The notes under the pieces are model-generated. The model did not search any database, was not told where the DNA came from, and saw nothing but the letters and a program-made list of their open reading frames with translations. Both the position numbers and the translations under genes were made by a program. A stretch of 64,000 nucleotides of DNA from Elusimicrobiota bacterium (GTDB taxonomy: Bacteria; Elusimicrobiota; Elusimicrobia; UBA1565; UBA9628): positions 2,966 to 66,965 of the forward strand of contig JAKFCD010000056.1 of NCBI GenBank assembly GCA_036676805.1, given 5' to 3'. Positions 21,798 through 59,027 of this stretch are shown here, piece after piece (positions within the stretch are counted from its first letter, which is position 1; the number at the start of each line of letters is the position of its first letter).

Positions 21798-21800
21798 GTT

Positions 21801-28505: not shown

Positions 28506-28512
28506 ACCGTGT

Positions 28513-36292: not shown

Positions 36293-36299
36293 CTGTTGA

Positions 36300-37933: not shown

Positions 37934-37955
37934 AGGGATCAATTTTCATGCAGTT
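37934..37955 (-). promoter_or_regulatory. Shared motif copy D upstream of the mobilisation/transfer operon
   Basis: Minus strand AACTGCATGAAAATTGATCCCT. Confidence 0.65.
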
Positions 37956-39267: not shown

Positions 39268-40615
39268 CGTTCTTGCTCCGATGCTTTCCGGTCCGCTTGA
39301 GCGACTTGTAGAGCAGGCCCGTGTCGATCTTCAAGTCGGCCATGACCTTGGTCTTGCGGCCCTCGTTGTCCGTCAAGCTGCGCTGGATCGCCCCGTCCTC
39401 GAAACGATTGACCGCGGCGTAGAGGCCGTTCTCGAGGATATAGCTGTATTGCTGCTCGGTCAGGAACTCGTCGGAGGACTGGCCCGCGCGGGTCGTCGCC
39501 AAGATTTGACGCGCCGCATCCGCGGTGACGCGCCCCGAATCGCCGCCCGCCGCCAAGTCCACGAATTTCTTGAGCTCGCGGACGTTGCCCTGCCAGTCGT
39601 GACGCAATAGCAGCTGTTTCGCATCCGCCGTGAACGACAGTCGCAGCCCGCCGCGGTTGAAGAAGGCGATCAGCGGGAGGATGTCGGCCTTTCGCCTGGC
39701 CAAGGGCTTGAGCTCGATGGTCAGGCCTTGGACACGTTGGAGGAAGTCGAAGCGCAGGCACCCCTTCTTGACGAGGTTCTGGAGGTTCTCCAAGGTCGCG
39801 CTGATGATCCGGAAGCGGGACTTCACGGCACTGTCCGCTCCGAGTGGATAGAAGGCCTTCTCCTCGATGGCCTTGAGAAGCTTGGTCTGCATCGCAAGGC
39901 TCATGGAACCGATCTCGTCCAAGAAAAGCGTTCCCCCGTCCGCCAGGAGGAGCTTGCCCTTGCGTCCGTCCGCGGCGCCGGTGAAGGCGCCCTTGCGGTA
40001 GCCGAACAACTCCGCTTCCAGCAGATCCTCCGTGTAGGCCGCGCAATTGATCGCGACGAACTGCCCTTTCCGTCCGGACCGGCCATGGATGACTTCGGCC
40101 AAGCTCGTCTTGCCGGTGCCGGAGGGCCCCAGGATGATGACCGGCAGTTCCGAGGCTGCGTACTTGAGGGTTTCGGCGACGTTGGCGCGCGTGGCCGCGT
40201 CCTCAGTGACGAACAGGTCTTGGAACAGGCGGTCCTCGCCGCTCTGCGGGCTCTTCCGGAGGAAACGCGCGATGACCGCGCCGACGTTCTCCTCCTCGTT
40301 TCCCTTGGCGTAGAAGTCGTCGCAGCCCAGCTCGTAGGCGCGCTCAACCACCGCCTCAGAGTCATGGCCGGACATGACCACGCAGTAGGCCCCCGCCTTG
40401 GCCGCCATGGGGACCAACTCCAGGCCGGACTTGTCGTCCGACTTGCCGCTGAGCTTGAGGTCGATGAAGCAGATGTCGTTGCGGCGGGCGCCGATCTTCT
40501 TGCGGCCGGCCGCCAAGTCCGAGGCGAATTCAACATCATGCTCGCTCAGCTCCCCCTTCACGAGTTCGCGAGCGAGCGGATCGTCCTCAATGACCAAGAC
40601 CTTGAGCTTTCTCAT
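39257..40615 (-). CDS. NtrC-family sigma-54-dependent response regulator (bEBP)
   Basis: REC (VIEDD, FIDLKL), AAA+ GPSGTGKT, ELFGYRKGAFTGA, FLDEIG, WQGNVREL and a C-terminal HTH. Confidence 0.95.
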   Translation of the reverse strand: MRKLKVLVIEDDPLARELVKGELSEHDVEFASDLAAGRKKIGARRNDICFIDLKLSGKSDDKSGLELVPMAAKAGAYCVVMSGHDSEAVVERAYELGCDDFYAKGNEEENVGAVIARFLRKSPQSGEDRLFQDLFVTEDAATRANVAETLKYAASELPVIILGPSGTGKTSLAEVIHGRSGRKGQFVAINCAAYTEDLLEAELFGYRKGAFTGAADGRKGKLLLADGGTLFLDEIGSMSLAMQTKLLKAIEEKAFYPLGADSAVKSRFRIISATLENLQNLVKKGCLRFDFLQRVQGLTIELKPLARRKADILPLIAFFNRGGLRLSFTADAKQLLLRHDWQGNVRELKKFVDLAAGGDSGRVTADAARQILATTRAGQSSDEFLTEQQYSYILENGLYAAVNRFEDGAIQRSLTDNEGRKTKVMADLKIDTGLLYKSLKRTGKHRSKNDGD

Positions 40616-40703: not shown

Positions 40704-40725
40704 AACAGCATGAAAATTGATCACT
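40704..40725 (+). promoter_or_regulatory. Shared motif copy A upstream of the rSAM operon
   Basis: AACAGCATGAAAATTGATCACT, identical over 22 nt to copy B. A weak GG-N10-GC (40696-40709) overlaps it. Confidence 0.7.
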
Positions 40726-40759: not shown

Positions 40760-42778
40760 ATGATCGAGACCAACCCCGAAGCGAAAGTCCTGCTGGTCAG
40801 CATGCCGTTCGGCCCCCTCAACATGCCCTCGATCGGTCTTTCCCTGCTCCAAGCCTGCTTGAAGGACAAGGGCGTCGCGTCGCAATGCCTTTACATGACC
40901 ATCCCCTTCGCCAAGGCCATCGGCGCCGACCTCTACAACGAAATCACCTCCGGCAAGCCGGACTCGGCCGACATGCTCGGCGAGTGGATCTTCGCCGAGA
41001 CTTTGAGCCCCGGCCGCACCGACCCGGACGCCTACCTAAAGAACGTCCTACACGCCGGAGGCAAGAAGCCCGCCGACATCGATGCGATTTTCGCCAAGGC
41101 GCTTGGGGCCCGAGATCAGGCCGCGGCTTTCATCGAGCGCTGCGCCCGGGAAATCCCCTGGGGCCAATACCGCGTCATCGGCTTCACGAGCATTTTTCAG
41201 CAGAACGTCGCCTCTTTGGCGCTCGCCAAGCGCATCAAGGCCGCGCACTCCCAAGTCACCATCGTATTCGGCGGCGCGAACAGCGAGGGCGTGATGGGGC
41301 TTGAAATGCTCCGCAACTTCCCGTTCGTCGACGCGGTGGTCTCGGGCGAGGGCGAGATCGCTTTCCCCCAACTCGTCCTGCGCCTTTTGGAAGGCGAGTC
41401 CATTGAGGCCGTCCAGGGCGTCTTCACGCAGGCGAACTGCCGGCAGGCGTTCCCCCCGAACGCGCGACTCACCGCCCCGTCGCCCAAGACGATGGACGAC
41501 CTTCCCATCGTGGACTACGACGACTACTTCGGCCAGCTCCACGCCAGCGGCCTCGACATCACGCACGATCTCCGCCTCCTCTTTGAGACCTCGCGCGGCT
41601 GCTGGTGGGGCCAGAAATCCCACTGCACCTTCTGCGGCCTCAACAGCTCCAACATGGCCTTTCGCGCCAAGTCCCAAGAGCGCGCCTTGTCCGAGCTCGA
41701 AGGCATGCTCGCCCGCTATCCCGGCATCGAGGTCTCGGTCGTGGACAACATCCTCGACATGACCTACTTCCAGCGCTTCCTCCCCGCTCTGCGGGACAAA
41801 GGCGGAAAGTCCGACCTGTTCTACGAGGTCAAGGCGAACCTGCGCAAGGAGCAACTCCAGCTCATGCGCGAGGCCGGCATCACCAAGATTCAGCCGGGAA
41901 TCGAGAGCCTGAGCAGCGCCGTGCTCAAGTTGATGCGAAAGGGCACGACTGGCCTCCAGAACGTGCAGCTCATCAAGTGGTGTAAGGAGTTGAACATCAC
42001 CCCCTACTGGAACATCCTCTGGGGCTTCCCCGGCGAGGACGCGGCGGAGTATGAGAAGATGGCGCGCTGGATCCCCCTGCTGACTCACCTGCCGCCGCCC
42101 GGCAGCACCGCGCAGCTCCGCCTGGACCGCTTCAGCCCCAACTTCGACCAATCGGCGGCGCTGGGCTTCAAGAACGTCCGAGCGCGGTCCTCCTACGGCC
42201 ATCTTTATCCGACCTTCAGCGAGGAGTCTCTGCACAAGGCCGCCTATTACTTCTCCTTCGACTACCAGGACGGCCGCGACCCGCGAGGCTACGTCCGCTC
42301 GCTGCAGGACGCCGTCCAAACCTGGATCGGCGATTACCGCGAGAACGAGATGCTGTCCCTGGAAACCGAGGATGGGCTGCTCATCTGGGACCAGCGCGGC
42401 GCCGGCGAGCCCCGTCAATGGCTGCTGAAGGGCCGGGCGCGCGAGGTCTATGAGTCCTGCGACCAGATCCAGAGCGTGCGCGGCGTCGCCGCGCGCCTGG
42501 AAGCCTCCGGTAACGCGGAGTACGAGGCCGACATCGCCCGGCTCGCCCAGGCCATGGCGCGAGAAGGCCTGCTCCTCGAAGACAACGGCTTCTACCTCGC
42601 CCTCTCGATCCGCTTCGGCAACTACGCGCTGCCTGAGACCGTCCTGAGCCGTATCGCGACCGCGTTCGACCGCATGGGCAGCGGCGAACTCGATCTCTCT
42701 GAAGAAGCTCCGGGTCTGTACCACGTCCGGACGGCCGCCGCCGAGCCGCAATCGGCGCCGATCTGCGCTACGGCGTAG
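40760..42778 (+). CDS. RiPP-maturation B12-binding radical SAM enzyme (TIGR03975-like)
   Basis: LVSMPF...PSIGLSLL, GFTSIFQQNVASLALA, VFGGAN, ETSRGCWWGQKSHCTFCGLN, QPGIESLS, NILWGFPGE and LDRFSP. Confidence 0.92.
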   Translation: MIETNPEAKVLLVSMPFGPLNMPSIGLSLLQACLKDKGVASQCLYMTIPFAKAIGADLYNEITSGKPDSADMLGEWIFAETLSPGRTDPDAYLKNVLHAGGKKPADIDAIFAKALGARDQAAAFIERCAREIPWGQYRVIGFTSIFQQNVASLALAKRIKAAHSQVTIVFGGANSEGVMGLEMLRNFPFVDAVVSGEGEIAFPQLVLRLLEGESIEAVQGVFTQANCRQAFPPNARLTAPSPKTMDDLPIVDYDDYFGQLHASGLDITHDLRLLFETSRGCWWGQKSHCTFCGLNSSNMAFRAKSQERALSELEGMLARYPGIEVSVVDNILDMTYFQRFLPALRDKGGKSDLFYEVKANLRKEQLQLMREAGITKIQPGIESLSSAVLKLMRKGTTGLQNVQLIKWCKELNITPYWNILWGFPGEDAAEYEKMARWIPLLTHLPPPGSTAQLRLDRFSPNFDQSAALGFKNVRARSSYGHLYPTFSEESLHKAAYYFSFDYQDGRDPRGYVRSLQDAVQTWIGDYRENEMLSLETEDGLLIWDQRGAGEPRQWLLKGRAREVYESCDQIQSVRGVAARLEASGNAEYEADIARLAQAMAREGLLLEDNGFYLALSIRFGNYALPETVLSRIATAFDRMGSGELDLSEEAPGLYHVRTAAAEPQSAPICATA

Positions 42779-42810
42779 GAATAAAAAAACACGTCGCAAA
42801 GGAGAACCCC

Positions 42811-42960
42811 ATGAACCCGTCCCTTCCCGAGAGCAAGACCAAGATTCGCCTCAACAAAGAGGAGCTGCTCGCCAAGCTCTCGTCCGGCCCCGCCTCCGTC
42901 AACGGAATCGACAAATCGGGCCGCAACACCATCCACGTCAGCGTCGGCGTGGGAGCCTGA
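42811..42960 (+). CDS. 49-aa putative RiPP precursor peptide (below the ORF-track cutoff)
   Basis: AAGGAG SD then MNPSLPESKTKIRLNKEELLAKLSSGPASVNGIDKSGRNTIHVSVGVGA*, directly after the rSAM gene. Confidence 0.8.
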   Translation: MNPSLPESKTKIRLNKEELLAKLSSGPASVNGIDKSGRNTIHVSVGVGA

Positions 42961-42970
42961 ATTAAAGATG

Positions 42971-43009
42971 GTCGGGGAGGCTGGCCTTCGCGGGCCGGCC
43001 TCCCCGATC
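42971..43009 (+). terminator. Stem-loop between precursor and MFS genes
   Basis: GTCGGGGAG-G-GCTGGCC-TTCGCG-GGCCGGC-CTCCCCGAT; likely an mRNA stabiliser or partial terminator. Confidence 0.55.
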
Positions 43010-43031
43010 TCTTCCCCAAATTAACTATCTT

Positions 43032-44237
43032 ATGAACCTGAGCTACCGTCAAGAATTTCGGCGCCTCGTCGCGGGCTACGCCCTCTCCACCCTTGGGGAC
43101 GCGGGCGTAAGGATGCTCCTCGTCTGGATCACTTTGGAGCAACGCGGAGCCGTGGCGATGAGCGGCGTTTTCATCGCCGCCGCCGGGGCCTCCGTGTTCG
43201 GGCCCTATGCCGGGCGCAGCCTCGACCGCTACCCGGCGCGGTACATCCTGAGCGCGACCTGCGTAATACGCTTCGCCCTCATACTGGCTCTCGTCTTCAT
43301 GGATTCGCAGTCGATCGCGCGGTACGCCGTACTCTTCGCCTTCTTGAACGCGTTCTTCACCCTCGCCTTTGGGCCGGCCGTCGCTAAGACGATTCCCGCC
43401 ATGTTCACCCCGGATAAAATGCCCGAGGCAAACGCCTCATGCGGCGCCTCATTTCTCATCGCTTCGGCGGCAGGACCGGCGCTCGGCGGCGCCGTTCTTG
43501 CGCGTTTCGGGCCAAGCGAAGCTTGCGCGGTCTTCGCCGCGGTCCTCCTAGTCACCGCGCCTCTCTCGTATTTCATCGCCTTCCCGGTTGCAGCGGCGCA
43601 AGACGGCAAGGAGAAGATCGCGAGCGGCTACGCGGAAGGGTTCCGCATATTGGCGACGATGCCGGTCGTCCTCGTGCTCCTGGTCCTCGGCACAGCCCTG
43701 AACTTCGCGTTGGCGCCGATCAACGTGGCTCTCGCCCCGCTCATGCTCTCTCTCGGGACGGGCCCTCAGGGTTTCGGTTTCGCCATGGCCCTTTTCGTGG
43801 CCGGCGCCGTGGGCGGCAACTTCCTCGCGGGAAGACTTCTGAGGTCGGCAAGCTGGGAACAATCGGTCTTCGCCAGCCTGGGAGCCATCGCGTTCGGACT
43901 CGTCGCCGTCAGCGTGAGCCAAACTCCGGTCCAGGCCGCGATCGCCATCCTGGTCATCGGGACCGCCATTCCCTTCTTCCAGATCCCCGTCGCCACGCAG
44001 CTTCAGCGATTCGTTCCGTCCGCGAACGCGGGCCAGGTGTTCGCCTCGGTCAACTCCGTTACCCTCTTCGCGGCGCCGTTGGCGGCGGCGGGAGCCGGAG
44101 CATTGCTCAAGTGGTTTTCCCCGCCGCTCCTGTTCTCCGGGGCGGCGGTCTTATGCGCCGTGCTGTGTCTGGGTTGGGGGCTTTTTAAGCGACAGCAGGA
44201 AAGGGCGGCGCCTTTGCTTGACTCCAATTTCAGCTAG
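43032..44237 (+). CDS. MFS transporter (macrolide-efflux-like), probable exporter
   Basis: About 12 hydrophobic segments; GPYAGRSLDRYPAR motif-A-like; GPALGG. Confidence 0.88.
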   Translation: MNLSYRQEFRRLVAGYALSTLGDAGVRMLLVWITLEQRGAVAMSGVFIAAAGASVFGPYAGRSLDRYPARYILSATCVIRFALILALVFMDSQSIARYAVLFAFLNAFFTLAFGPAVAKTIPAMFTPDKMPEANASCGASFLIASAAGPALGGAVLARFGPSEACAVFAAVLLVTAPLSYFIAFPVAAAQDGKEKIASGYAEGFRILATMPVVLVLLVLGTALNFALAPINVALAPLMLSLGTGPQGFGFAMALFVAGAVGGNFLAGRLLRSASWEQSVFASLGAIAFGLVAVSVSQTPVQAAIAILVIGTAIPFFQIPVATQLQRFVPSANAGQVFASVNSVTLFAAPLAAAGAGALLKWFSPPLLFSGAAVLCAVLCLGWGLFKRQQERAAPLLDSNFS

Positions 44238-46471: not shown

Positions 46472-46574
46472 CCTTGGGCATCGAAGGTAGGGGGCCTATC
46501 CGCGAATAGGCCAATAGACCCTCGTCCAACAAGGAACTCCAGGCTAAGCTTCTATATCGCCTTCAAGGCGACTC

Positions 46575-46670
46575 TGTAGCCCGGGGGATTGGCCCCGGGG
46601 TATCCACGATCCGACCGCAATCGGATGAAACCAGAGGCTTGGCACGCAGTGTGCCCAGGCCTTTGGTTTT
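46575..46670 (+). ncRNA. Candidate structured leader RNA, copy 1
   Basis: 38-nt block with 35/38 identity to 53332-53369 (minus), then hairpin ATCCGA-CCGCAA-TCGGAT, then a long stem AAACCAGAGGC...GCCTTTGGTTTT. Confidence 0.5.
46639..46654 (+). promoter_or_regulatory. Possible sigma-54 promoter (-24/-12) for the peptide gene
   Basis: TTGGCACGCAGTGTGC has a perfect TGGCACG and GG-N10-GC spacing. Caveat: it lies inside a palindrome. Confidence 0.5.
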
Positions 46671-46731
46671 CATATTTTCCGTACCGGCGAATTTTGGTAG
46701 ACTCATAACTTCACGGAGGTTCGATACAAAC

Positions 46732-46884
46732 ATGAACAAAAAGCTCCCGTTCCTCATCGTCGGCTATCTGCTGGGCGCGTGCGCTCTCGTGGCGTCCATT
46801 TCCGCCATGGTCTACACCAAAGCCTCCGTGGAAGTCGCTTCGAGTTCCGACAGCAACTGCAAGAACGGCGGCTCCGGCCTTTAA
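46732..46884 (+). CDS. 50-aa putative signal/RiPP precursor peptide
   Basis: GGAGG SD; MNKKLPFLIVGYLLGACALVASISAMVYTKASVEVASSSDSNCKNGGSGL has a basic-hydrophobic N-terminus and a Ser/Cys/Gly-rich C-terminus. Confidence 0.75.
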   Translation: MNKKLPFLIVGYLLGACALVASISAMVYTKASVEVASSSDSNCKNGGSGL

Positions 46885-46980
46885 ACCGTCGTATTCTTGT
46901 TCCGCCGATCCGCCCAGCAACGGCCATGGGGCCTATGCTGGGCGGCTATTTTCAACAGCCCCTTTGCCAGTGTCTCTCCC

Positions 46981-48450
46981 ATGAACCCAACGATGCGTCG
47001 TTACGCGCTTCTCGCATTCGCGGTATTGGGCGTGATTTTGGTTTACTCATGGCATGGCATGACCCATTCTAAGACCCTCCGAGTCGGCTTTCCCCTCATT
47101 TTTCTCCGGCAAGACCCGACGATCCTGGACCCGCGAAATACGGATACGGTCTATGAGTATTATCTGCTCGAGAATCTTGCCGTCGGCTTGGTCCGCGACT
47201 CGAGCCAGTCGCCGTCGGGCTACGGGCCCGGCATCGCGGAGTCTTGGGAGCGTCTCTCACCGACGCGTTGGGTATTCCATTTGCGGCCGGGACTGGCCTG
47301 GAGCGACGGCACCCCTATCGACCCCGCGCTGATCGCGAGTCATGTCGTGTCGTTGAGCCGGGAGAAACATAGGCACATCGTCTACCTGAAGAAGCTTCTG
47401 AGCGCGACGGTGGAGAACCGCGATCTCGTCCTCGAGTTCTCCGCGCCCACCAACGACGGCCTGATCCATGAGCTGAGCCTGGCGGACTCGGCGTTGCTCC
47501 ATCCCGACAATCTTACGAAGGACTGGCTCGTGACCTCGGGCCCTTTCTCGGTCGAATCATACGAACCAGGAAAGAGTCTTCACTTGAAGAAGAATCCCCA
47601 CTATCGGGTTCAAGACGGTTACCCGGACCAAGTGGAGCTAGTGGGCTTCACAAAGGATACCACCGGAAACTTCTTCGACACCGTCGACATCGACCTGCTG
47701 AAGATACCTCTCCCTTCTTTTCGAGGATCGAATCCGAAGGTCTTAGCCAAGGCGCCTCAGGTGCTTCGCGGCTACCCCACGTCGATTTACCAGCTGTACT
47801 TCAATACGGAGAAATCCCTTTGGCGCGACGTCGAGGCGCGTCGGGAATTGGCCTTCATCACCGAGCAGGCGCTGAAGGGGTTCACATATGCCGATCTCGC
47901 CCGTGAGCGCCAATTGATCCCGAAAGGCTATTCAGGCCGTCTCGATGACGGCGCGGTGCCGAGTGGCTCATCGCGGGGTCTCCTCGCCGGCAAACGCTTG
48001 AAAATCTACCTTTGGCCTTCATTCTCCGACGGCCCTCAGATCGCCGCGGCCCTCAAAGCAGGTTTCGAGAAGGCGGGAGTCCCGCTGGACATCGGGTACG
48101 CGTGGGAGCTGCCCGAGATGGCGCCCGATTCCGACCTCCAGATGACATTATTCGCGGGCAATCAGCGCGAAGCGATGGGAAGCTGGCAGTTCATGTTCTC
48201 CCCGGATCATGGGCACCTCCGCCACTTCCGTCCGAAAGTGGAGCCTTTTTTCGACCGGATCATGGCCTCCGACGACAAGGAGGACCGCGAGACCAACATC
48301 CGCGCCCTCCACAGTCACGTGTTGAAGGAAGCCTACGCCGTGCCCCTTTTCATCGAGGCGGACATCCTTGTGGCAAGCGATCAGGTCGACCTTTCACGTC
48401 TAAATCCCTTCGACTTGCGTCTGCGGTTCTATGAAGTCCAGTGGAAGTAG
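46981..48450 (+). CDS. ABC-type family-5 (oligopeptide) substrate-binding protein, without permease or ATPase genes
   Basis: PGIAESWERLSPTRWVFHLRPGLAWSDGTPI, VTSGPFSVESYEPG, LKKNPHY and EAYAVPLF. Confidence 0.88.
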   Translation: MNPTMRRYALLAFAVLGVILVYSWHGMTHSKTLRVGFPLIFLRQDPTILDPRNTDTVYEYYLLENLAVGLVRDSSQSPSGYGPGIAESWERLSPTRWVFHLRPGLAWSDGTPIDPALIASHVVSLSREKHRHIVYLKKLLSATVENRDLVLEFSAPTNDGLIHELSLADSALLHPDNLTKDWLVTSGPFSVESYEPGKSLHLKKNPHYRVQDGYPDQVELVGFTKDTTGNFFDTVDIDLLKIPLPSFRGSNPKVLAKAPQVLRGYPTSIYQLYFNTEKSLWRDVEARRELAFITEQALKGFTYADLARERQLIPKGYSGRLDDGAVPSGSSRGLLAGKRLKIYLWPSFSDGPQIAAALKAGFEKAGVPLDIGYAWELPEMAPDSDLQMTLFAGNQREAMGSWQFMFSPDHGHLRHFRPKVEPFFDRIMASDDKEDRETNIRALHSHVLKEAYAVPLFIEADILVASDQVDLSRLNPFDLRLRFYEVQWK

Positions 48451-49387
48451 CCGCTGGTCCCTCGACCTGAATCTCATCCGCAAGGGCGGCGCGCAGATAA
48501 AGTCCCCGCTGACCGGCCGCACTGAGCAGTTGAATTGGTCGGTCATCAAAGTTCCCGCGAAACTCCTTCCGATCTCCGTGGTCGAATGCCGTCTCGTAGG
48601 CATGGGCCGAACAGTCTACGGCTACGGCGACAGCCTGCTCTATACGGACTCCCTCACCCAAGCCTTCGCCGAGGCCTGGGAACGCCTATGGTTCGACCTT
48701 CATTGCGACGACCCAAACGGAGTCAGCGGCCCGCTTCGCAGTAGCAACGGCTTCGCCTGCGGAGCAACGCCACAAGAGGCCGAGGCGGCCGCACGATCCG
48801 AACTGATCGAGCGCGCCGTATATTTGACGGCCTGGAACGCGCGCAATGGCTGGGTCCCGATCACATCGACCGGACTCTTGAACCGGGTTCTACTCGCGTC
48901 CCTCGATGTCCTCGGCTGGGAAATCGCGTTATTCCGCCTGTCAGAGGAAACATTGGGCGATGTGATTTGCGGGCTGAGCACCCGAAAAACCGGCGGAGTG
49001 CTCTTCGACTGCGTCTATCAGCGGCAAGGCGTCGCTATGGGGCAGGCCCAATCGAAGGTGCTGCGTTCGCTTCTCAGATCCGCCGTCGTCCTTGGCAATT
49101 CCCCCGCCTCTTATGCGCCGCTTCCCGAGCGCGGCGGCCCTTCCTCGCATAGAGACTTCTATATGGAGCCGGCTAACCTCGTCGCCTTCGATTTCTTGAA
49201 GGAGCGGCTATCGATGGCCGAACGAGTTAAACTAGACGGCTGCGATCATACCGAGACCCGTATCCTTGTCGATATCGAAGGATTCCCCTGCGTCGCGGCG
49301 GCGACGAATCCACATTGGCCCGTTCTGAGCTGGGGCAAAGAATCGCTTAAAGAGGGAGGCAATCCATGGCCGCATCCTCTCGCCTGA
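48431..49387 (+). CDS. Compact YcaO-family protein
   Basis: AFAEAWER, SSNGFACG...EAEAAARSELIER (ATP-binding motifs) and a Pro-rich C-terminus NPWPHPLA. Confidence 0.85.
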   Translation: MKSSGSSRWSLDLNLIRKGGAQIKSPLTGRTEQLNWSVIKVPAKLLPISVVECRLVGMGRTVYGYGDSLLYTDSLTQAFAEAWERLWFDLHCDDPNGVSGPLRSSNGFACGATPQEAEAAARSELIERAVYLTAWNARNGWVPITSTGLLNRVLLASLDVLGWEIALFRLSEETLGDVICGLSTRKTGGVLFDCVYQRQGVAMGQAQSKVLRSLLRSAVVLGNSPASYAPLPERGGPSSHRDFYMEPANLVAFDFLKERLSMAERVKLDGCDHTETRILVDIEGFPCVAAATNPHWPVLSWGKESLKEGGNPWPHPLA

Positions 49388-51411
49388 CTCTCGTCTCGCC
49401 GCTGCGCGTCTGGCTCATTTTCAACGCGTTGTTCGTCGCCTTGGTCGCCAGCAGCTGGTATACCCTTTATCGTCAAGCCCAGGCCGACAACCAGCGCCTT
49501 GTCGCCAGCCAAACCATCACTTTGACCAAATCTCGCTTCGACGACATCAAGAACCGCCGGTTCCGGGATTTCGTCGAAGGCGTCGGCCGAGAGTTCTCGG
49601 ACCTCCATGTCCGGCTAAGCATCGCCGAAGAGACATACCAATTCGGCAAACTCCCCTCTCCGGGACACTGCAGCGACCTGGTCTACCCGCTCGGAGGTCG
49701 CGGCGCGGCGAGCGAGGCCCGCATCACGATGTGCCGCCCGTTCCGGTTCTCGAGCGCTCCGATCTTGGCCGTACTTCTCGTCTATCTCCTGATTTCAGGC
49801 CTGTCCCTCGTATTCGTCAGGCGGCTGGAGCGCCGCACGACCGCCGCGCTCGTCGAATTCCTGCGGGCCTCGGGCGTGGAGATCGATTCGGGTCGAGACC
49901 TTATCGGCATCATGGCGGACATGCGCGACATTCGTATTCGGCTCGATCAGGCCCAGGCGCAGGAACGCCAATTGATCGACACCCGCGCCCGCGCCGAACT
50001 GGCCGAGCAGGTGGCGCACGATATCCGGTCTCCGCTCACCGCCCTGGAGGCCACGGCCGGCGACATGGACTCGATGCCTGAGAAGAAGCGTCTTCAGATC
50101 CGAAGCGCCCTTTCCCGCATCCGCGATATCGCTAACGGCCTTCTCGATCGACGGAGAGCCGACATAGGGGAAAGCGGCTCTACAGTAAAAAGGGCGGATT
50201 CCTCCCCACAGCTGCTGTCCAGCTTGATCGAACCCATCATCTCCGAGAAACGCCTGGCGCTAGGACCCGACTCAGGCATCGAGGTCATTTCTCCCGATGC
50301 GGCCGGCTCCTACGGGCTCTTCGTCCTGGTCGATCCAGTGGAGTTCAAGCGGGCGCTCTCGAATCTTATCAACAACGCCTTGGAAGCTCTGGACGGAAAC
50401 GCGGGAAAGGTGCGCGTAACCGTCTCCAAGTGTGACAGCCAAATTCTCGTCGCCGTGAATGACGACGGCAAGGGCATGCCGCCGGACGTGCTCGCGAAGC
50501 TCGGACAGCGCGGCGCCACCTTCGGCAAGGCCGGCGGCTCCGGGCTGGGGCTCCATCATGCCCGGGCCAGCGCCAAGGCCTGGGGTGGACGCTTGGACAT
50601 CGCCTCGGAGGTCGGCGAGGGGACGACCGTGACTTTGGCTCTTCCCGCGGCCTCCGCGCCTGTTTGGTTCGTTCCTGAGGTCGCGACGGCTCGAAGCGGC
50701 CTCGTCGTGATTCTAGATGACGACGAGGGCATCCATCAGGTCTGGCGCGATCGTCTGAACTCCCTGGGTGCTGATGGACAAACCGTCGAAGTACGCGGCT
50801 TTTTCACGCCGCAGGACCTTCGGGGGTGGGTCAAGGCGAACCCCCTTGACGCTTCGCGCGCGCTCTATCTCCTGGACCACGACCTGGCAGGCTTCACGGA
50901 CACTGGTCTAAGCCTTGCTTCGGAACTCAGTCTTGAACGGCACGCGATTCTTGTTACGGGACGGCATGAAGACGCTAAAGTCCTGGAAGAATGCCGAATG
51001 CTTGGCATCCGCATGCTCCCAAAAGAGTTGGCCCCGCTGGTCCCCATCCGAGTGTCTGCTTCCGCTCCGACCAACGCCTCCGCGACTAGGCTGCTTGACG
51101 CCGTGTTGATTGACGACGACCCGCTGACCCGAATGACCTGGGAGAATGCGGCTGCCGAATCTGGGAAGGAGTTGCGCACCTTTTCTTCCCCAGCGGAGTT
51201 TATGCGCGAATATGGAGAGATCGACCGGCGGACGCCGATATACATGGATGTGAATCTGTCCACGGGGACGGACGGGGCCGCGGAGTCGCTGTGGGTTCAC
51301 TCTCTCGGGTTCAGCGAAATATACCTCGCGTCGGGGCATCCGCCTGAGAGATTCGCGAACCTTAAGCACCTACGGGCAGTGGTCGGCAAGGAACCGCCCT
51401 GGAACGCATGA
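49366..51411 (+). CDS. Membrane hybrid histidine kinase with two C-terminal receiver domains
   Basis: Two TM segments around a short periplasmic domain; QVAHDIRSPL, NLINNALEA, DDGKGM and GSGLGL; REC1 (ILDDD, LLDHDL) and REC2 (IDDD, YMDVNL). Confidence 0.92.
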   Translation: MAASSRLTLVSPLRVWLIFNALFVALVASSWYTLYRQAQADNQRLVASQTITLTKSRFDDIKNRRFRDFVEGVGREFSDLHVRLSIAEETYQFGKLPSPGHCSDLVYPLGGRGAASEARITMCRPFRFSSAPILAVLLVYLLISGLSLVFVRRLERRTTAALVEFLRASGVEIDSGRDLIGIMADMRDIRIRLDQAQAQERQLIDTRARAELAEQVAHDIRSPLTALEATAGDMDSMPEKKRLQIRSALSRIRDIANGLLDRRRADIGESGSTVKRADSSPQLLSSLIEPIISEKRLALGPDSGIEVISPDAAGSYGLFVLVDPVEFKRALSNLINNALEALDGNAGKVRVTVSKCDSQILVAVNDDGKGMPPDVLAKLGQRGATFGKAGGSGLGLHHARASAKAWGGRLDIASEVGEGTTVTLALPAASAPVWFVPEVATARSGLVVILDDDEGIHQVWRDRLNSLGADGQTVEVRGFFTPQDLRGWVKANPLDASRALYLLDHDLAGFTDTGLSLASELSLERHAILVTGRHEDAKVLEECRMLGIRMLPKELAPLVPIRVSASAPTNASATRLLDAVLIDDDPLTRMTWENAAAESGKELRTFSSPAEFMREYGEIDRRTPIYMDVNLSTGTDGAAESLWVHSLGFSEIYLASGHPPERFANLKHLRAVVGKEPPWNA

Positions 51412-52754: not shown

Positions 52755-53225
52755 TTACGGCCCTGCCCGCACCAACCGCTTAAACCGTCGCCCGCCTTCG
52801 CTCGTTTTCGCGCTTATCGGCCGGCCGCGATTGAACCGCAGCTCAGCCAAGCGGCCGTTGCGAACACGACCGCTCAATATCCGCAGCGCATCCCAGTATT
52901 CGTCGAACACAGGAGCGGCCGGAGTGCCTTCCGCCACGGGGCCAAATGTCAGGCTGCGTTGGATGTTCTCGCACGAGACGATGTTCCCATCAACGATGTT
53001 GACGCCGTACATCGTGCAGTAGGCGTACTCTGAGCAGACCAGCGCCAACAGATAGCCCCATTGGCCGCTGCCAACCCCGGTCACGCTCGGAACCCCTGCG
53101 CGCTGGAGTACCTGATTGAACTGGCGCGCCTCGGCCCCCTCAGCGGACCTTGAATGCCCTGTTGCGGGGTGGCCGGACGGGAACGATTCGGAACTAACCG
53201 TCTCCGACATACCACGACGATCCAT
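52755..53225 (-). CDS. Hypothetical protein
   Basis: ORF with GGAGG SD, downstream of structured-leader copy 2. Confidence 0.5.
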   Translation of the reverse strand: MDRRGMSETVSSESFPSGHPATGHSRSAEGAEARQFNQVLQRAGVPSVTGVGSGQWGYLLALVCSEYAYCTMYGVNIVDGNIVSCENIQRSLTFGPVAEGTPAAPVFDEYWDALRILSGRVRNGRLAELRFNRGRPISAKTSEGGRRFKRLVRAGP

Positions 53226-53278: not shown

Positions 53279-53369
53279 AAAAAACGGGAAACGATAGTAG
53301 TCGTTTCCCGTGGTCGCATCCCGTTTCGGCGGGATCGTGGATACCCCGGGGCCGATTCCCCAGGCTACA
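53279..53369 (-). ncRNA. Candidate structured leader RNA, copy 2, ending in an intrinsic terminator
   Basis: Minus strand: 38-nt block, hairpin ATCCCG-CCGAAA-CGGGAT, then an 11-bp stem ACGGGAAACGA/TCGTTTCCCGT plus a T-run. Confidence 0.55.
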
Positions 53370-53464
53370 CAGGTCCATTTGCGTCTAATCCTAGTGTAGG
53401 CTGGGAACCGCACGCCTTACAGGGGCATTGGTCCTCCATAGGTTGGGGGCCAAAAGTCCTACCT

Positions 53465-53486
53465 AACAGCATGAAAATTGATCACT
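53465..53486 (+). promoter_or_regulatory. Shared motif copy B
   Basis: AACAGCATGAAAATTGATCACT, 43 nt upstream of ATG 53530. Confidence 0.7.
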
Positions 53487-53529: not shown

Positions 53530-53949
53530 ATGCCGAACGACTCCCCCTCCCAGGAGGGCGAGATACGCCGCCGCATCCTGATAGTTGAAGACGACGCCCT
53601 GATGCGAGTTTTCTATGAGCGCCTCTTCAAAAGCCACGCGCACGACCTGGACTATCACTTAGAGGGGAGCGCTGAGGGCGCGCTGGATTACCTGCGAGGG
53701 GCCAGCGTTGACGCGATCATCACGGACTGGGATCTACCGAGCGTCAATGGGATCTACTTATTGAAGGCTCTGCGTTCCCATCCATCCACCAAATCTCTGC
53801 CCGTCGTGATGGTAAGCGGGCGCACCGGTCCCGGCTATATGGACATCGCCCTCAAGAACGGGGCCAGCGACTACTTCTCCAAGCCTTTCGAGGTCACGGC
53901 CTTTCTCGATCGCTTGAGGTGCCTTCTCCGCCGACCCGGCGACCCCTAG
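53530..53949 (+). CDS. Single-domain response regulator (receiver only)
   Basis: LIVEDD, IITDWDLPSVNG, VMVSG and DYFSKPF. Confidence 0.92.
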   Translation: MPNDSPSQEGEIRRRILIVEDDALMRVFYERLFKSHAHDLDYHLEGSAEGALDYLRGASVDAIITDWDLPSVNGIYLLKALRSHPSTKSLPVVMVSGRTGPGYMDIALKNGASDYFSKPFEVTAFLDRLRCLLRRPGDP

Positions 53950-55264: not shown

Positions 55265-55339
55265 GTGTCTGAATGTGCGGCGTTAGGCGAGGATAATCCG
55301 ATTTCGGCCGGCAGTCAAGACTGGCGGTCGAGAATCCAG

Positions 55340-55356
55340 CAGCATAAAAATTGATC
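55340..55356 (+). promoter_or_regulatory. Shared motif copy C
   Basis: CAGCATAAAAATTGATC(GCC), 53 nt upstream of ATG 55410. Confidence 0.65.
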
Positions 55357-55409
55357 GCCAAAGCAGGACGCCGCTGACGTTAAGGCATCGGCGGCCAGCG
55401 AGGAGTTCA

Positions 55410-55817
55410 ATGGCGACCAGATCTTCACGGCAAGTCGGCGCGCGTCCTCACCGCATCCTGATCGTCGAAGACGACGACATAATGCATGTGTTCTACAAGG
55501 CGCTGTTCCGCAGGCACAAGGACGAGTTCGTCTGCCATTTCGAAAGGAGCGCGGCAGCCGCCCTGGTGCACCTGCGGTACGGGAACATCGAGGCAGTGGC
55601 TTTGGCCTGGGATCTTCCCGGCATCAACGGGATCGACCTTCTAAAGGGCATGCGCGTCAATCCCGAAACCAGGGACATCCGCGTGATGGTCGTCAGCGGT
55701 AGAACGAGGACGGAGGATCAAGTGCTGGCCCTGGCGAGCGGCGCCGACGACTATCTCACCAAGCCGTTCGAGGTCGACATCTTCCTGGCGCGCCTGCGCA
55801 CCCTGCTCCGACGTTAG
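55410..55817 (+). CDS. Single-domain pseudo-receiver (phospho-acceptor Asp replaced by Ala)
   Basis: Paralogue of 53530..53949, but reads EAVALAWDLPG where the paralogue has DAIITDWDLPS. Confidence 0.85.
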   Translation: MATRSSRQVGARPHRILIVEDDDIMHVFYKALFRRHKDEFVCHFERSAAAALVHLRYGNIEAVALAWDLPGINGIDLLKGMRVNPETRDIRVMVVSGRTRTEDQVLALASGADDYLTKPFEVDIFLARLRTLLRR

Positions 55818-55855: not shown

Positions 55856-58081
55856 TTAGTTTCCTCGTAGCTTAGGCTGAGGTATCGAAAAGCGGCTCAG
55901 CAGCCCGTCAAACAACGGGTCCGCGGCGTGAGGACGAGATGCCTCCTTCTCGTCCAAGATGCGGTAAACGGCGACCCAGCGTTCAGGATAAACCTTGACT
56001 TCGAATTCCCGTACGGCGTACCGCTTCCAGAAGGCTGCCAACTTCAATAATGTGGCGGGCGGCACGTTCGTCCATAAGCGTCTTCGTTCCATCTCGCTGA
56101 GGTTGATCAGGACGTAGTCAAGCCTCTCAGCCTTCAACTGGCTCCTCAATTCCTCCGGAGTTGCGCTGCGGCCGGCCCAAAGCTCGAGCAGGGATGGGTT
56201 ATCGTCTGACGCGGTTCTGTATCGACGGCGCAGATAAAACCCCCGCGGGTCGCCGTAAAGGATGACGCCGCTGTCCTTCGGCGTGTGCTCGTTGATGTAC
56301 TCGATCCCGGAGTAGGGCGGGCTGACGTAGGAGACGACGTAGTGGGTGAGATACTCGCCGAAGCCCTTCTTCCCCATGTAGACGCCGAGTTTGGCCTGAT
56401 CCACGGCGAGGCCTACCCACAGCAGGCCGTAGACCGCGCAGCAGGCGCCTGCGACCCCCAGGAGGGCGGTCCTGAAGGCGGGCGGCCGCATCTGCGCGAT
56501 GACGCAGGAGACGAGCAGCGTCGCCAGGGCGAGATGCGGGATGAAGTAGCGCGTGATCTCGGTCAGCAGGCTGAGGGACAACCACGAAAGGAGCGCGGCC
56601 CACGCCAGCACGCGCTCGGTGTCCCGGAGCTTCGCCAAGAACACGAGCGGCGTCAGGCAGGCGACGAATAGTCCCGTGGATTGGAACATGTCCTTCAAGA
56701 AGAGGAAGCGCGCGGGGAACGCGGCGTAGCTCATCCAGCCCGAAAGACTGAGCAGCGAGTAGTTCTTGCTCATGCCGCCCGCGGCCATGCCGCGCCAGTT
56801 CGGGATGAAGTCCGCCTTGCCGACGATGAAATCGTGGAAGAAGGGATAGAGCGGGTTCTTGTAGAACCAGACGTTCTTCAGGCCCCACGGGGCTAGGACG
56901 GCGGCGGCGACTCCCAGGACCCAAAGGAGTTCCTTGACGCTCGCGCCGTGCAGGCGGCCGGGCTCGGATGGGGCGTCGGACGGCGGCGGAGAAAAGCGCA
57001 GGAAGAGCAGCGGGACCATCGCGACGGGAAGCAGCCAAGCTTGATATTTCGTCGCCATGGCAAAGCCCAGGAAAGCGCCGGAGACGATCATCCAAGCCCT
57101 CCTGCCCGCGCCTCCCGGGGGCTCGGCGAGCGCGTAGACCAGCGAAGCGAACCAGCACAGTTCGAGCAGCGCCCACTCCATGCCGACCGAGACGCTGAAA
57201 CTTTCCGTCAAAACGACCGGCACGATGAAAAATGCCGCAGCCGCCAGGGGGCCGGCCGCAGCGCGCCCGACCCGGCGCGAATAGCCGATCATCCCGATCC
57301 CTACCCATAGGGCCATGCTGTGATGGAGCAGGTAGGCCGTGATGCCCCAGGAATCCAAGGCCAGCGCCCATCCGTACAGCATCTGCGGAAGCCCCGGAAT
57401 TCCCGAATAGGAGATCTCAGGGGTCGGGAATATCTTCCCTTGCTGGATGAACATGGAGGGAAGGCCGAGGTGATATTGGAGGGCGTCGTAAAAGGTCTCG
57501 GGAATCAGCGCGTAGCGCGCCGTGCAGAGCCAGACGAAGATCACACCGATGATCGCGTACAGGCTGGGAATGTCGAATCGTTCGGCTTCAGCGCCAGCGG
57601 AAGCGGGCGCGGCGCGTCGATAGAGGCTCCAGCCGTCGAGCGCGGCCAGGATGAGCGCTGCCGCCAGCAGGCCCAGCAGCACGCCGCGCGACCAGAGGCC
57701 GGCCAATCCCAGAAGGAGCAAGACCGTGCCGGCCGCGCCGTAGCCCAGCCCGAAGCTCAACGCGAGCGCTTCCCAAGCGTTGTGGAGCCTGACGCCGGCC
57801 AGATGCAGGAGACGGCGGCCGATTCCCAGGAGCGCGATCGTCACGCCCGCCAGCGCCGCAAAATATTTCGCGTGGCGCAGAGAAGCATCCAAAGTCGGAA
57901 GCACAGCCCACGGTGAGTTCAGCCACTGATCGAGGATAGGCCCAACGGGAATCTTGGCCTGCTTGAAAAACCAGACCGCGACAAACCCTGTCCAGGCAAA
58001 GACGACGACAATTCCCCATAGAGGAAAATCGGGGACGGTCGCGGTTATCTCCGTGAGTCTTTGCTTCTTGGAGCGCTTCAC
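55856..58081 (-). CDS. GT-C superfamily (ArnT/PMT-like) polytopic glycosyltransferase
   Basis: Many TM segments; FYDALQYHLGLP, ATKYQA and PWGLKNVWFYKNPLYPF. Confidence 0.75.
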   Translation of the reverse strand: MKRSKKQRLTEITATVPDFPLWGIVVVFAWTGFVAVWFFKQAKIPVGPILDQWLNSPWAVLPTLDASLRHAKYFAALAGVTIALLGIGRRLLHLAGVRLHNAWEALALSFGLGYGAAGTVLLLLGLAGLWSRGVLLGLLAAALILAALDGWSLYRRAAPASAGAEAERFDIPSLYAIIGVIFVWLCTARYALIPETFYDALQYHLGLPSMFIQQGKIFPTPEISYSGIPGLPQMLYGWALALDSWGITAYLLHHSMALWVGIGMIGYSRRVGRAAAGPLAAAAFFIVPVVLTESFSVSVGMEWALLELCWFASLVYALAEPPGGAGRRAWMIVSGAFLGFAMATKYQAWLLPVAMVPLLFLRFSPPPSDAPSEPGRLHGASVKELLWVLGVAAAVLAPWGLKNVWFYKNPLYPFFHDFIVGKADFIPNWRGMAAGGMSKNYSLLSLSGWMSYAAFPARFLFLKDMFQSTGLFVACLTPLVFLAKLRDTERVLAWAALLSWLSLSLLTEITRYFIPHLALATLLVSCVIAQMRPPAFRTALLGVAGACCAVYGLLWVGLAVDQAKLGVYMGKKGFGEYLTHYVVSYVSPPYSGIEYINEHTPKDSGVILYGDPRGFYLRRRYRTASDDNPSLLELWAGRSATPEELRSQLKAERLDYVLINLSEMERRRLWTNVPPATLLKLAAFWKRYAVREFEVKVYPERWVAVYRILDEKEASRPHAADPLFDGLLSRFSIPQPKLRGN

Positions 58082-58145
58082 GTTGTGAGTTTATAACATT
58101 GAGGTTGATCGGGCCGAAGGCGTTCGCCGGAGTTTGCGGGCGCGC

Positions 58146-59027
58146 TTAGAAGCGCGCGCCGAGGCTGAACCGGTGCGAGCGCCCGAGCTCGCCCGAGGGC
58201 AGGACGGCGTAGTCGAGGCTCCACTTCTCGTTCCGGAAGCCCAGTCCCAAAGTCAGGCCCCTGGCGACGTCGAAGCCCGAACCGCCGGTGATGGCCGTGC
58301 GCGTCGTGTACCCGGCGCGCAGGAACACGTTCTTGACCGCCTGGTACTCGCCGCCGAAGGAGGCGTCCGTCCCCGCCCCCCGTGGCCCGTTCACCGCCTC
58401 GGCCGCCGCCGCATGGCCGCCATTAAACCGGTAGGCCGCGCCGACCGTGAGCCGCAGCGGCAGGTCATTGCGCTGATCCTGGTACTTGAGGCCGGGGCCG
58501 AGGTTTCTCAGCGCCGCGCCGACGCTCACCCGGTCGAAGGCCCGCTTGGCGCCGATATCGGCGGCGACGCTCTGCGCCTGCGTCCCGGCGATGTGGCTTT
58601 GCAGGTACTTGACGGTCGCGCCCAACTCGGCGATATCCAGCTTGCGCGCGTAGCCGAGGCTTAACGCCGCGTCCGAGGCGTCGTAGCCCGCCGTCCGGCG
58701 TCCCAGGCTGTCGCGGCCTTCGAGCTTGCCCTGGCTCAGGTAGGTCAGGCCCGCCGCGAAAGTCCCCTGGCTGGTCGGATGGGCGTAAGCCAGGAAGTCG
58801 AGCCGCGTACTCTCGAAGAGCTCGGCGTGGCTGGCCGTGAACTCGCGCTTCTCAAGCTTGGACAAACCGGCGGGGTTCCAGTACAGCGAGTTCGCGTCGT
58901 CGGCCAGCGCCGTGTAAGCCCCTCCCATGCCGAGCGCTCGCGCGCCCACGCCGATGTCCAGGAACGACGCCGTCTCGGCGCCGAACACCGAACTCGCCAG
59001 CAGCAGGACCGCCAGGAGGGCTCTCAC
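58146..59027 (-). CDS. PorV/PorQ (UPF0164)-family beta-barrel protein
   Basis: ASFLDIGVGARALGMGGAYTALADDANSLYWNPAGL...DYAVLPSGELGRSHRFSLGARF. Confidence 0.88.
   Translation of the reverse strand: MRALLAVLLLASSVFGAETASFLDIGVGARALGMGGAYTALADDANSLYWNPAGLSKLEKREFTASHAELFESTRLDFLAYAHPTSQGTFAAGLTYLSQGKLEGRDSLGRRTAGYDASDAALSLGYARKLDIAELGATVKYLQSHIAGTQAQSVAADIGAKRAFDRVSVGAALRNLGPGLKYQDQRNDLPLRLTVGAAYRFNGGHAAAAEAVNGPRGAGTDASFGGEYQAVKNVFLRAGYTTRTAITGGSGFDVARGLTLGLGFRNEKWSLDYAVLPSGELGRSHRFSLGARF

Follow-up and report, generated by a model that had tools for sequence, protein, structure and literature searches.

Signalling by peptide pheromones is considered to be characteristic of monoderm bacteria. 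In the Enterococcus plasmids pCF10 and pAD1, an orphan OppA-type protein encoded by the element (PrgZ and TraC, respectively) captures a short secreted peptide and controls conjugative transfer, and the Enterococcus pheromone peptides derive from precursors bearing signal sequences. In a second group of systems, LuxP-LuxQ, TorT-TorS, ChvE-VirA and AioX-AioS-AioR, a periplasmic solute-binding protein (SBP) without a transporter signals its occupancy to a membrane kinase, often a hybrid one; among these, ChvE-VirA controls a type IV secretion system (T4SS) and AioXSR uses a sigma-54-dependent NtrC-type regulator. Here we analysed a 64,000-nt stretch of DNA from an Elusimicrobiota bacterium, referred to as the window, in which a cassette at positions 46575-51411 encodes a small peptide, an orphan SBP, a YcaO enzyme and a membrane histidine kinase. 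We propose that this cassette is a sensory operon gated by a 2'-deoxyguanosine (2'-dG) ON-riboswitch, in which a secreted, Cys-containing peptide would be handled by the YcaO, the SBP and the kinase, and which would be wired to an NtrC-type regulator, a sigma-54-like factor and T4SS genes. From the comparison of related loci we judge this reading quite possible, though somewhat short of probable.

As in the Enterococcus pheromone plasmids, an orphan family-5 binding protein, a probably secreted peptide and a putative conjugative element come together at this locus. However, the SBP of those plasmids feeds the Opp permease of a monoderm host, PrgX or TraA is the intracellular target of the peptide, and neither a kinase nor a peptide-modifying enzyme nor a riboswitch takes part. 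The staphylococcal Agr system (AgrD/AgrB/AgrC/AgrA) is comparable: the N-terminus of a small precursor targets the membrane, a Cys in the variable core is essential, the C-terminal tail is discarded, and a membrane histidine kinase senses the modified peptide; the core of the cassette peptide also varies between relatives as pherotypes do. Agr differs in that a thiolactone is made by the membrane protease AgrB and not by a YcaO, that the kinase binds the peptide directly, and that the host is monoderm. The SBP-dependent kinases would share with the cassette the coupling of an orphan periplasmic SBP to a membrane kinase, but their ligands are small metabolites or ions instead of a peptide from the same operon, and they employ no peptide-modifying enzyme. 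By an analogy that we infer, the transfer genes of ICEBs1 likewise respond to a secreted peptide and to a cue of DNA state, through RapI-PhrI and the SOS response, although the parts of that system, an imported Phr pentapeptide, a Rap protein and RecA-dependent cleavage, are different. The logic of the cassette also resembles that of the nisin-type autoinduction known for peptides that are made on the ribosome and then modified post-translationally (RiPPs). Our literature searches gave no description of a signalling system that combines a YcaO, a binding protein and a kinase, and we know of no system joining a secreted peptide of the same operon, a YcaO, an orphan family-5 SBP and a kinase, nor of one gated by a nucleoside riboswitch. 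We regard the cassette as a new variation on peptide signalling by two-component systems, and there is a considerable chance that it goes beyond this.

The four genes that an initial annotation of the sequence had assigned to the cassette are all real according to open reading frame (ORF) and Pfam analysis, and their coordinates are unchanged; all of them lie on the + strand. The peptide gene (46732-46884), whose 50-aa translation is MNKKLPFLIVGYLLGACALVASISAMVYTKASVEVASSSDSNCKNGGSGL, is preceded by a good Shine-Dalgarno sequence, GGAGG at 46715-46719, which is kept in the related loci L001 and L141. The product has the appearance of a precursor with a signal-like N-terminus, a variable middle, an invariant Asn-Cys and a short variable tail. 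The SBP gene (46981-48450; 489 aa), the start of which is an ATG at 46981 that is conserved across the aligned loci, encodes a periplasmic protein of the family-5 (OppA/NikA) type, with both an SBP_bac_5 domain (84 bits in Pfam) and an export-type N-terminal segment. The compact YcaO (48431-49387; 318 aa) and the kinase (49366-51411; 681 aa) follow, the overlaps being 20 nt between the SBP and YcaO genes and 22 nt between the YcaO and kinase genes. Hydropathy analysis gave a single N-terminal hydrophobic segment in the peptide (residues 5-23) and in the SBP (residues 9-27), none in the YcaO, which is predicted to be cytoplasmic, and two in the kinase, flanking a periplasmic loop of about 100 aa. 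Neither a permease nor an ATPase gene adjoins the cassette in the window or in any neighbourhood examined; the SBP is therefore an orphan binding protein and not a member of a transporter operon. The kinase carries an ATPase domain (HATPase_c, 79 bits) and the H-box AEQVAHDIRSP. Its HisKA match (19.4 bits) is under the cutoff, HisKA being a scored match in the homologue of L143, and the Response_reg match also falls short (22.8 bits versus a cutoff of 30.2), although two C-terminal receiver-like segments with DDD...D patterns are visible. Since the kinase homologues range from 390 to 750 aa and many are without receiver-like segments, the receiver part is variable.

A word-indexed search with the YcaO among 5.8 billion proteins returned only 47 clusters, of which three have a source name, in each case Elusimicrobiota; a profile search over 1.84 billion representatives gave 125 clusters at E <= 1e-30 and 240 at E <= 1e-10. 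The YcaO family is rare but real. Together with the loci added by a metagenome scan (L007-L022), the genome neighbourhoods, whose comparison the initial annotation had recommended, showed that the order small ORF, SBP, YcaO, kinase recurs in every sufficiently sequenced locus and that the genes overlap in the same way, even where YcaO identity has fallen to 30%. The neighbourhoods thus agree with a conserved, translationally coupled four-gene unit. The exception is L013/L014, where an SBP and a YcaO lacking the C-terminal PWPHP part adjoin a UDP-glucose 4-epimerase gene, with neither kinase nor small ORF; this is probably the remnant of a decayed cassette. In L140 (CP096137.1, a complete Elusimicrobiota genome of 3.8 Mb) the NtrC-type gene is split into two ORFs, the YcaO call is without its N-terminus, and transposase genes follow the kinase; the system of this genome may be decaying.

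Small ORFs could be sought only in clades with DNA available upstream of the SBP, and in every one of these the ORF occurs at the same place with a conserved Shine-Dalgarno sequence; 13 peptides read directly upstream of the SBP were compared. The genes of close relatives differ least often at codon position 2 and most often at position 3, and the N-terminal 32 codons are conserved, with a middle that varies in sequence and length. All of the 13 peptides have a positively charged start followed by a hydrophobic stretch, and all have Asn-Cys at 3-14 residues from the C-terminus. The regions around it read SDSNCKNGGSGL in the window, ADSNCGGSI in L140, SSNCKGI in L141, ANCKGFPR in L001, ENCKGGIKSPKTS in L143, GNCNGGI in L142, RNCLNCGDC... 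in L003, LNCTGGGGTSC... in L010, DNCIHGGSC... in L015 and SNCNECSC... in L017. When each peptide was shuffled separately, none of 20,000 trials kept Asn-Cys in all 13. Readings of the peptide as carrying an N-glycosylation sequon or a lipobox were rejected, as neither is conserved across clades.

The association of this motif with the enzyme is seen from sister cassettes. Several other peptide-SBP-kinase cassettes headed by the riboswitch described below contain a kinase of the same family together with a different enzyme: a divergent YcaO-like protein in L061, a radical S-adenosylmethionine (radical-SAM) protein of about 290 aa with a 227-aa protein in L047, L078, L079 and L102, and a SPASM-type radical-SAM protein in L051 and L105; L094 has no enzyme. 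Asn-Cys was found in none of 6 sister-cassette peptides. Its co-occurrence with this YcaO family is thus strict (13/13 versus 0/6), so that the motif tracks the enzyme while peptide, SBP and kinase remain constant. Of the comparative evidence, this exchange of enzymes within a constant setting argues most strongly for an action of the enzyme on the peptide and for the peptide being part of the sensor. In addition, the small gene beside an enzyme gene, the conserved N-terminal part and the core with a modifiable residue are what is expected of a RiPP precursor.

The variation of the peptide also bears on whether the small protein is a signal at all. It might instead be a membrane-anchored or periplasmic accessory of the kinase, similar to MgrB or SafA, or a tethered ligand, in which case the SBP would sense a compound from outside, be it oligopeptides, cell-wall peptides or a metal chelate, and the YcaO would tune the accessory. 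The N-terminal hydrophobic segment could be an uncleaved anchor, AxA-type cleavage sites are clear in several peptides but only in some clades, and family-5 SBPs bind many ligands, the nearest NCBIfam models for this one being nickel and oligopeptide binders that all score far below their cutoffs. Nevertheless, the middle of the peptide varies between close relatives while its ends are kept, which is typical of pheromone and RiPP precursors, the peptide and the type of enzyme change together, and a hairpin behind the peptide gene fits overproduction of the peptide. We consider such an accessory rather improbable. The hairpin in question is a conserved stem-loop between the peptide and SBP genes (46910-46953, + strand; CCGCCCAGCA...TGCTGGGCGG, then CTATTTTC), the inner part of which was picked up by a terminator scan. 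It is kept in four aligned loci, with a compensatory change in L001 from CCCAGCA/TGCTGGG to CCAAGCA/TGCTTGG, and may serve to raise the amount of peptide transcript, either by leaky termination or by stabilising the RNA. Its position recalls the leaky terminators behind RiPP structural genes.

The initial annotation had recognised a compact YcaO with SNG, ExxER and PWPHP motifs, and these are present as AEAWER, SSNGFA, ELIER and, at the C-terminus, NPWPHPLA. When 37 members of the family were aligned, it was seen that AEAWER, SSNGFAxG, ELIER and NPWPHPLA are invariant or nearly so, and that E81, E84, R85, G107, A109, E124, E127 and R128, which align to the motifs of MJ1094, are invariant in all 37. 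The PF02624 match covers only residues 102-185 (33.3 bits, cutoff 25.7), and that to TIGR00702 in NCBIfam is below the cutoff (24.4 versus 75.65); neither the peptide nor the YcaO, nor any of the 179-, 282- and 201-aa ORFs, falls into a specific NCBIfam family. The AlphaFold2 (AF2) model of the YcaO has a pLDDT of 91, and the 23 best matches of this model in a Foldseek search of PDB are all YcaO-domain proteins (TM 0.41-0.63, probability 1.00). The best structures are 6pe3, 6peu, 6ci7, 4q86, 6gos_D, 4v1v and 7u58, the matched folds being those of archaeal MJ1094, M. kandleri YcaO, E. coli YcaO, McbD, LynD/TruD and MusD. The protein is only 11-17% identical to any solved YcaO, and a sequence-profile search of PDB with the family gave matches at motif level only. 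A proline-rich C-terminus of the PxPxP type marks azoline-forming peptide cyclodehydratases, and the window protein ends in N-P-W-P-H-P-L-A. In its fold, its ATP/Mg motifs and this proline-rich C-terminus, the enzyme is as the peptide-modifying YcaOs are.

The same structural matches, the best of which are archaeal protein-modifying YcaOs, could also be taken to mean that the enzyme acts on a protein (the SBP, the kinase, a ribosomal or another protein), like E. coli YcaO or the YcaOs that thioamidate McrA, and that the small ORF encodes an unrelated secreted peptide. The lack of a leader-binding partner would suit such an enzyme, as would the overlapping genes, which point to synthesis of the SBP, the YcaO and the kinase in constant proportions. 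On the other hand, the strict co-occurrence of Asn-Cys with this YcaO family, the proline-rich C-terminus of azoline formers and the lack of a TfuA make a protein target highly unlikely.

With modification of the small peptide as the preferred reading, the absence of an E1-like or RiPP recognition element (RRE) partner and of TfuA makes the enzyme a superfamily member resembling the stand-alone peptide-modifying YcaOs, and it lies outside the canonical definition of a two-component cyclodehydratase. BotC/BotCD of bottromycin and MusD of muscoride likewise are YcaOs without an E1-like or RRE partner that activate a backbone amide in an ATP-dependent manner, and the outcomes known for stand-alone enzymes are an azoline, an amidine or removal of C-terminal residues (PMC10885120 for MusD). 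At the Asn-Cys a thiazoline would be the simplest product; the chemistry might be other than that, and removal of the tail as by MusD, or another cyclisation such as one of the thioester type, is possible. The enzyme differs from the stand-alone RiPP YcaOs in being shorter and in being encoded in a two-component sensory operon instead of a biosynthetic cluster.

The leader of the operon contains an aptamer of the 2'-dG-II class (env1/env23), a class reportedly described by Weinberg et al. in 2017. This aptamer (46569-46639, + strand) matched Rfam RF03165 over its full length (1-71/71) with a score of 83.8 bits (gathering score 60; E 2.9e-22), no other family of the purine clan fitting better. 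Its J2/3, GUAUCCAC (AUCCAC matched), and its J3/1, GAAACC, both align to the consensus; a C is present at the position-51 equivalent of J2/3 and J3/1 is extended, and a C51-type J2/3 and an extended J3/1 are the hallmarks of the class (Matyjasik and Batey 2019, PMC6847200). The expression platform is a terminator hairpin (AAACCAGAGGCUUGGCAC / GUGCCCAGGCCUUUGGUUU) with a U-rich tract (46626-46685, + strand). A simple terminator scan missed this long hairpin, and it was taken from the centroid of an RNA fold, in which the 3' strand of the aptamer helix P1 forms part of the terminator's 5' arm. Because of this shared strand, the ligand-bound aptamer should prevent termination, which would make the riboswitch an ON switch. 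The terminator stem is kept in L001 with a different sequence and is present in L141 too. About 60 nt upstream of the aptamer lies an inverted repeat, GGCCTATCCGCGAATAGGCC (46493-46512), parts of which are kept in L001 and L141 in spite of a different upstream gene; it could be an operator or an element of the promoter region.

A second copy of the riboswitch (53279-53375, - strand; aptamer 53305-53375, RF03165 77.3 bits; terminator GGGAAACGA...UCGUUUCCCGUUUUUU) controls u156, a gene for a 156-aa protein that is convergent with the cassette (52755-53225, - strand) and that heads the cassette or the T4SS operon in relatives. Both copies are conserved in L001 and L141 and a single copy in L140, copy 1 having the same position in all three, and the riboswitch is also present in L142 and L143. 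The u156 family comprises 45 clusters, with all source names but one being Elusimicrobia. No Pfam or PHROG match was obtained for u156, only unnamed homologues, and its AF2 model (pLDDT 71.5) gave no fold match in PDB.

The riboswitch terminator bears directly on the promoter that the initial annotation had placed ahead of the peptide gene. A sequence TGGCAC-N5-GTGC is indeed present at 46640-46655 (TGGCACgcagtGTGC), and it had been combined with the NtrC-type activator into a full model in which a sigma-54 promoter closes a positive autoinduction loop. However, the site has two mismatches to the consensus, forms the apex of the terminator hairpin, where it would be paired, and is not conserved in L001, a locus of 70% identity. 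Sigma-54 consensus matches of the same quality are fewer in the window than in shuffled sequence (9 versus 17.6 expected). The candidate promoter was rejected on these grounds. Moreover, the sigma-54-like motif common to the other promoters of the element, (G/A)GCA(C/T)-N5-TTGAT, is absent from the peptide operon, which leaves the autoinduction loop without support, and we consider the full model exceedingly unlikely. While the conserved unit and its small ORF have been borne out, the promoter and the loop have thus fallen away; the assignment to a mobile element, taken up below, has held in part.

A degenerate aptamer pattern scanned over one genome per species (loci L023-L139) detected at least 117 stretches, nearly all in Elusimicrobia/Elusimicrobiota assemblies, and several genomes contain multiple copies. 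All of the 19 pattern matches in 18 sampled loci pass the Rfam threshold, and in 39 of 41 automatically detected platforms the terminator stem begins in the 3' strand of P1; among the matches listed, to which the following copy numbers also refer, the aptamers mostly have ON-type terminators. The ORFs downstream of the aptamers, grouped by clustering, include two unknown proteins in succession, the first secreted and about 306 aa long (30 copies), the next about 513 aa long (21 copies), as well as a secreted metallo-beta-lactamase-fold protein of about 330 aa (27 copies), a protein of about 219 aa that is HNH-like by eye and has no Pfam match (8 copies), a phosphatase, and the u156 family. The ~330-aa protein is probably the 'ComEC' of the published 2'-dG-II gene associations, as these are relayed in PMC8872408. 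In L067 and L095 the riboswitch is followed by an NtrC-type gene and then a sigma-54-like gene. The published set consists of 12 metagenomic examples without host assignment (PMC5473149). The aptamer found here is the same, with scores above the gathering threshold, and what differs is that the host phylum, the full operons and the link to signalling cassettes and T4SS genes become visible. Our literature searches found nothing linking Elusimicrobia with a 2'-dG riboswitch. As the regulon is rich in secreted nuclease-like proteins, 2'-dG may report the breakdown of DNA outside or inside the cell; as a speculation, such breakdown would be a plausible cue for an element that transfers DNA.

The presumed output of the kinase lies on the other strand of the window. 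An NtrC-type response regulator with a receiver (REC) and a sigma-54-interaction AAA+ domain (Pfam; 39257-40615, - strand) is a neighbour of the kinase in relatives and is likely its cognate partner. Beside it is the gene for a compact sigma-54-like factor of 349 aa (38012-39061, - strand), of which only the DNA-binding domain was recognised (Pfam Sigma54_DBD, 52.8 bits). In the neighbourhoods read, the sigma-54-like gene is always paired with an NtrC-type gene. The kinase is co-operonic with the NtrC-type gene in four clades, and T4SS genes are adjacent in five besides that of the window. The kinase is followed by the NtrC-type gene, a small gene and the sigma-54-like gene in a JGI 560-kb contig, in L142 and in L143, and in L003 the NtrC-type gene opens the cassette operon. 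L142 is co-linear throughout, with riboswitch, u156, peptide, SBP, YcaO, kinase, NtrC-type gene, small gene, sigma-54-like gene and T4SS genes in this order, and in L143 a series of riboswitch, u156 and T4SS genes is divergent from the cassette. The T4SS genes beside the unit in the window and in those relatives include those for a coupling protein and a large fn3/FlgD_ig protein, with a TraU fusion in L003. By Pfam, the T4SS/conjugation-type gene set of the window, next to the sigma-54-like and NtrC-type genes, extends over 20729-36469 (- strand) and includes TrbI/VirB10 (20729-21409), VirB4/TraC (24946-27384), a protein with a single-stranded DNA-binding (SSB) domain (28513-29370), the fn3/FlgD_ig protein (31213-33741) and the coupling protein (33738-35486). 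We presume this gene set to be the output of the cassette.

A 21-nt motif, AAC(A/T)GCATGAAAATTGATC, occurs in 4 copies in the window, compared with 0 expected. Its core, (G/A)GCA(C/T)-N5-TTGAT, has the -24/-12 spacing and departs from the GG/GC dinucleotides. One copy, AACTGCATGAAAATTGATCCC (37935-37955, - strand), is just downstream of the sigma-54-like gene and ahead of a 242-aa ORF leading into the T4SS operon. The other three are on the + strand, at 40704-40724 (36 nt before a radical-SAM RiPP operon), at 53465-53485 (45 nt before the receiver-only gene REC1, 53530-53949) and at 55338-55358 (52 nt before the receiver-only gene REC2, 55410-55817). The motif is found at orthologous sites in L001, L140, L141 and L142, the T4SS entry included (L001 871-884, minus strand; L142 9839-9852). 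The motif may be the target of the compact sigma-54-like factor.

The operon behind the second of these sites (40760-44237, + strand), about 4 kb upstream of the cassette, encodes a radical-SAM C-methyltransferase of the rSAM_ocin_1 family (TIGR03975, 659 bits) and a major facilitator superfamily (MFS) pump. Its candidate precursor is a conserved 49-aa ORF (42811-42960; MNPSLPESKTKIRLNKEELLAKLSSGPASVNGIDKSGRNTIHVSVGVGA), with a homologue at 6704-6844 of L001; in L140 an operon containing ThiF takes the place of the radical-SAM RiPP operon. This second RiPP-type operon so near the cassette, together with the fact that YcaO enzymes are best known from antibiotic RiPPs, would be in keeping with a different function, in which the product would be an antimicrobial bacteriocin modified by the YcaO, with the kinase and SBP serving nisin-type autoinduction or immunity of the producer and the linkage to T4SS genes reflecting mere carriage on a mobile element. 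Genes for an exporter, an immunity protein or a protease are, however, missing from the cassette; in four clades the kinase shares its operon with the regulators of the T4SS set; and the core is predicted to be very short, holding a single modifiable Cys in the clade of the window. A bacteriocin is therefore distinctly unlikely.

For the sensory operon that we favour, the following course of events may be envisaged. Without 2'-dG the leader would terminate; with 2'-dG bound, P1 would hold the 5' arm of the terminator and permit read-through. The pre-peptide would then be made, possibly in excess through the hairpin behind its gene, the YcaO would activate the backbone amide at the invariant Asn-Cys, and the signal-like N-terminal segment would carry the peptide across the inner membrane by Sec-type export. 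In the periplasm the orphan SBP would read the peptide and dock on the periplasmic loop of the kinase, which would phosphorylate the NtrC-type regulator. This regulator and the sigma-54-like factor would finally fire the (G/A)GCA(C/T)-N5-TTGAT promoters of the T4SS operon, the two receiver genes and the radical-SAM RiPP/efflux operon.

A number of observations weigh against this scheme. With regard to the enzyme, an E1-like/Ocin-ThiF-like or RRE leader-binding partner is absent from the cassette in all neighbourhoods (a ThiF gene lies 5 kb from it, in L140 only), and TfuA was not found in the window ORFs scanned or in the neighbourhoods. The cassette encodes neither an exporter nor a maturation protease, and we know of no precedent for a Sec-type signal on a RiPP precursor that is modified in the cytoplasm. 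The ligand of the SBP could be other than this peptide. No Hpt protein was found and the kinase carries receiver-like domains of its own, so that the route of the phosphorelay is not clear-cut. With regard to the circuit, in distant clades the cassette adjoins genes for cNMP-binding, DUF333 and large unknown proteins and not T4SS or NtrC-type genes, RF03165 is absent at the gathering score from the L003 clade and from more distant clades, L013 has only the SBP and the truncated YcaO, and the departure of the motif from the canonical dinucleotides speaks against a sigma-54-like promoter. The signalling reading draws its support from comparative genomics only. A bolder version, in which a phylum-specific 2'-dG regulon lets a nucleoside from DNA breakdown license a YcaO-matured pheromone circuit, with the orphan OppA-type protein and its kinase as the reader, that drives the T4SS through the element's own NtrC/sigma-54-like pair and promoter type, appears unlikely to us, though by no means far-fetched.

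The initial annotation had placed the cassette on an integrative and conjugative element (ICE). In support of this, the window contains an integrase gene (19305-20351) as well as VirB4, the coupling protein, VirB10 and the SSB-domain protein, so that an integrase and a T4SS, as expected of an ICE, are both present. No relaxase, attachment-site (att) repeat or boundary was found: a relaxase was not detected in the ORFs scanned with Pfam or PHROGs, including the unassigned ORFs of the T4SS region and a 2714-aa ORF, several large ORFs being without any match, and no long flanking direct repeats occur inside the window. A tRNA-Ser gene (11703-11794) was rejected as the att site, as no repeat of its region occurs elsewhere in the window. 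The G+C content is lower at about 10-58 kb than in the flanks, and the synteny that runs from the cassette into PorV-like and NHL-repeat genes continues in relatives. A portable sensory module, joined in this lineage to a T4SS element, is the best description of the cassette.

The genes on the far side of the cassette (55856-63949, - strand) follow it in the same order in relatives at 55-71% identity. They encode a 741-aa multi-pass membrane protein without a Pfam match of its own, and beside it a PorV-like outer-membrane protein and a protein of >1600 aa with NHL, Big_13 and ZU5 repeats; in L143 and the JGI 560-kb contig, the place of the 741-aa protein is taken by PMT_2-type glycosyltransferase genes. 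These genes on the far side could be part of the same element, or they could indicate a neighbourhood that is preferred. A defence-like cluster (12205-18116), situated between the tRNA-Ser and integrase genes, contains a DUF5677 protein (12205-13221, - strand), an AAA_13/SMC-like ATPase (14207-16531) and a CAP12/Pycsar-type TIR effector (17073-18116; 138 bits). The 2714-aa ORF (14-8158, + strand) has a G+C content of 70-76%, no Pfam domain and many degenerate internal repeats.

With its exchangeable RiPP-type enzymes (two YcaO types, two radical-SAM types or none), the conserved peptide-SBP-kinase unit of this diderm phylum would represent a new family of systems for cell-cell sensing or self-sensing, and YcaO chemistry would gain a new role. 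The 2'-dG-II riboswitch gains a genomic home in the Elusimicrobiota together with complete operons, and its link to secreted nuclease-like proteins, signalling cassettes and a DNA-transfer apparatus makes the purpose of 2'-dG sensing directly testable. The compact sigma-54-like factor and its departing motif of the -24/-12 type offer a tractable, element-encoded alternative sigma-54 system. If the proposed circuit is true, horizontal gene transfer in these bacteria would be under two-input control, and the cassette would provide the first RiPP-type pheromone with an SBP-coupled kinase receptor in a diderm as well as the first physiological setting for the 2'-dG-II riboswitch.

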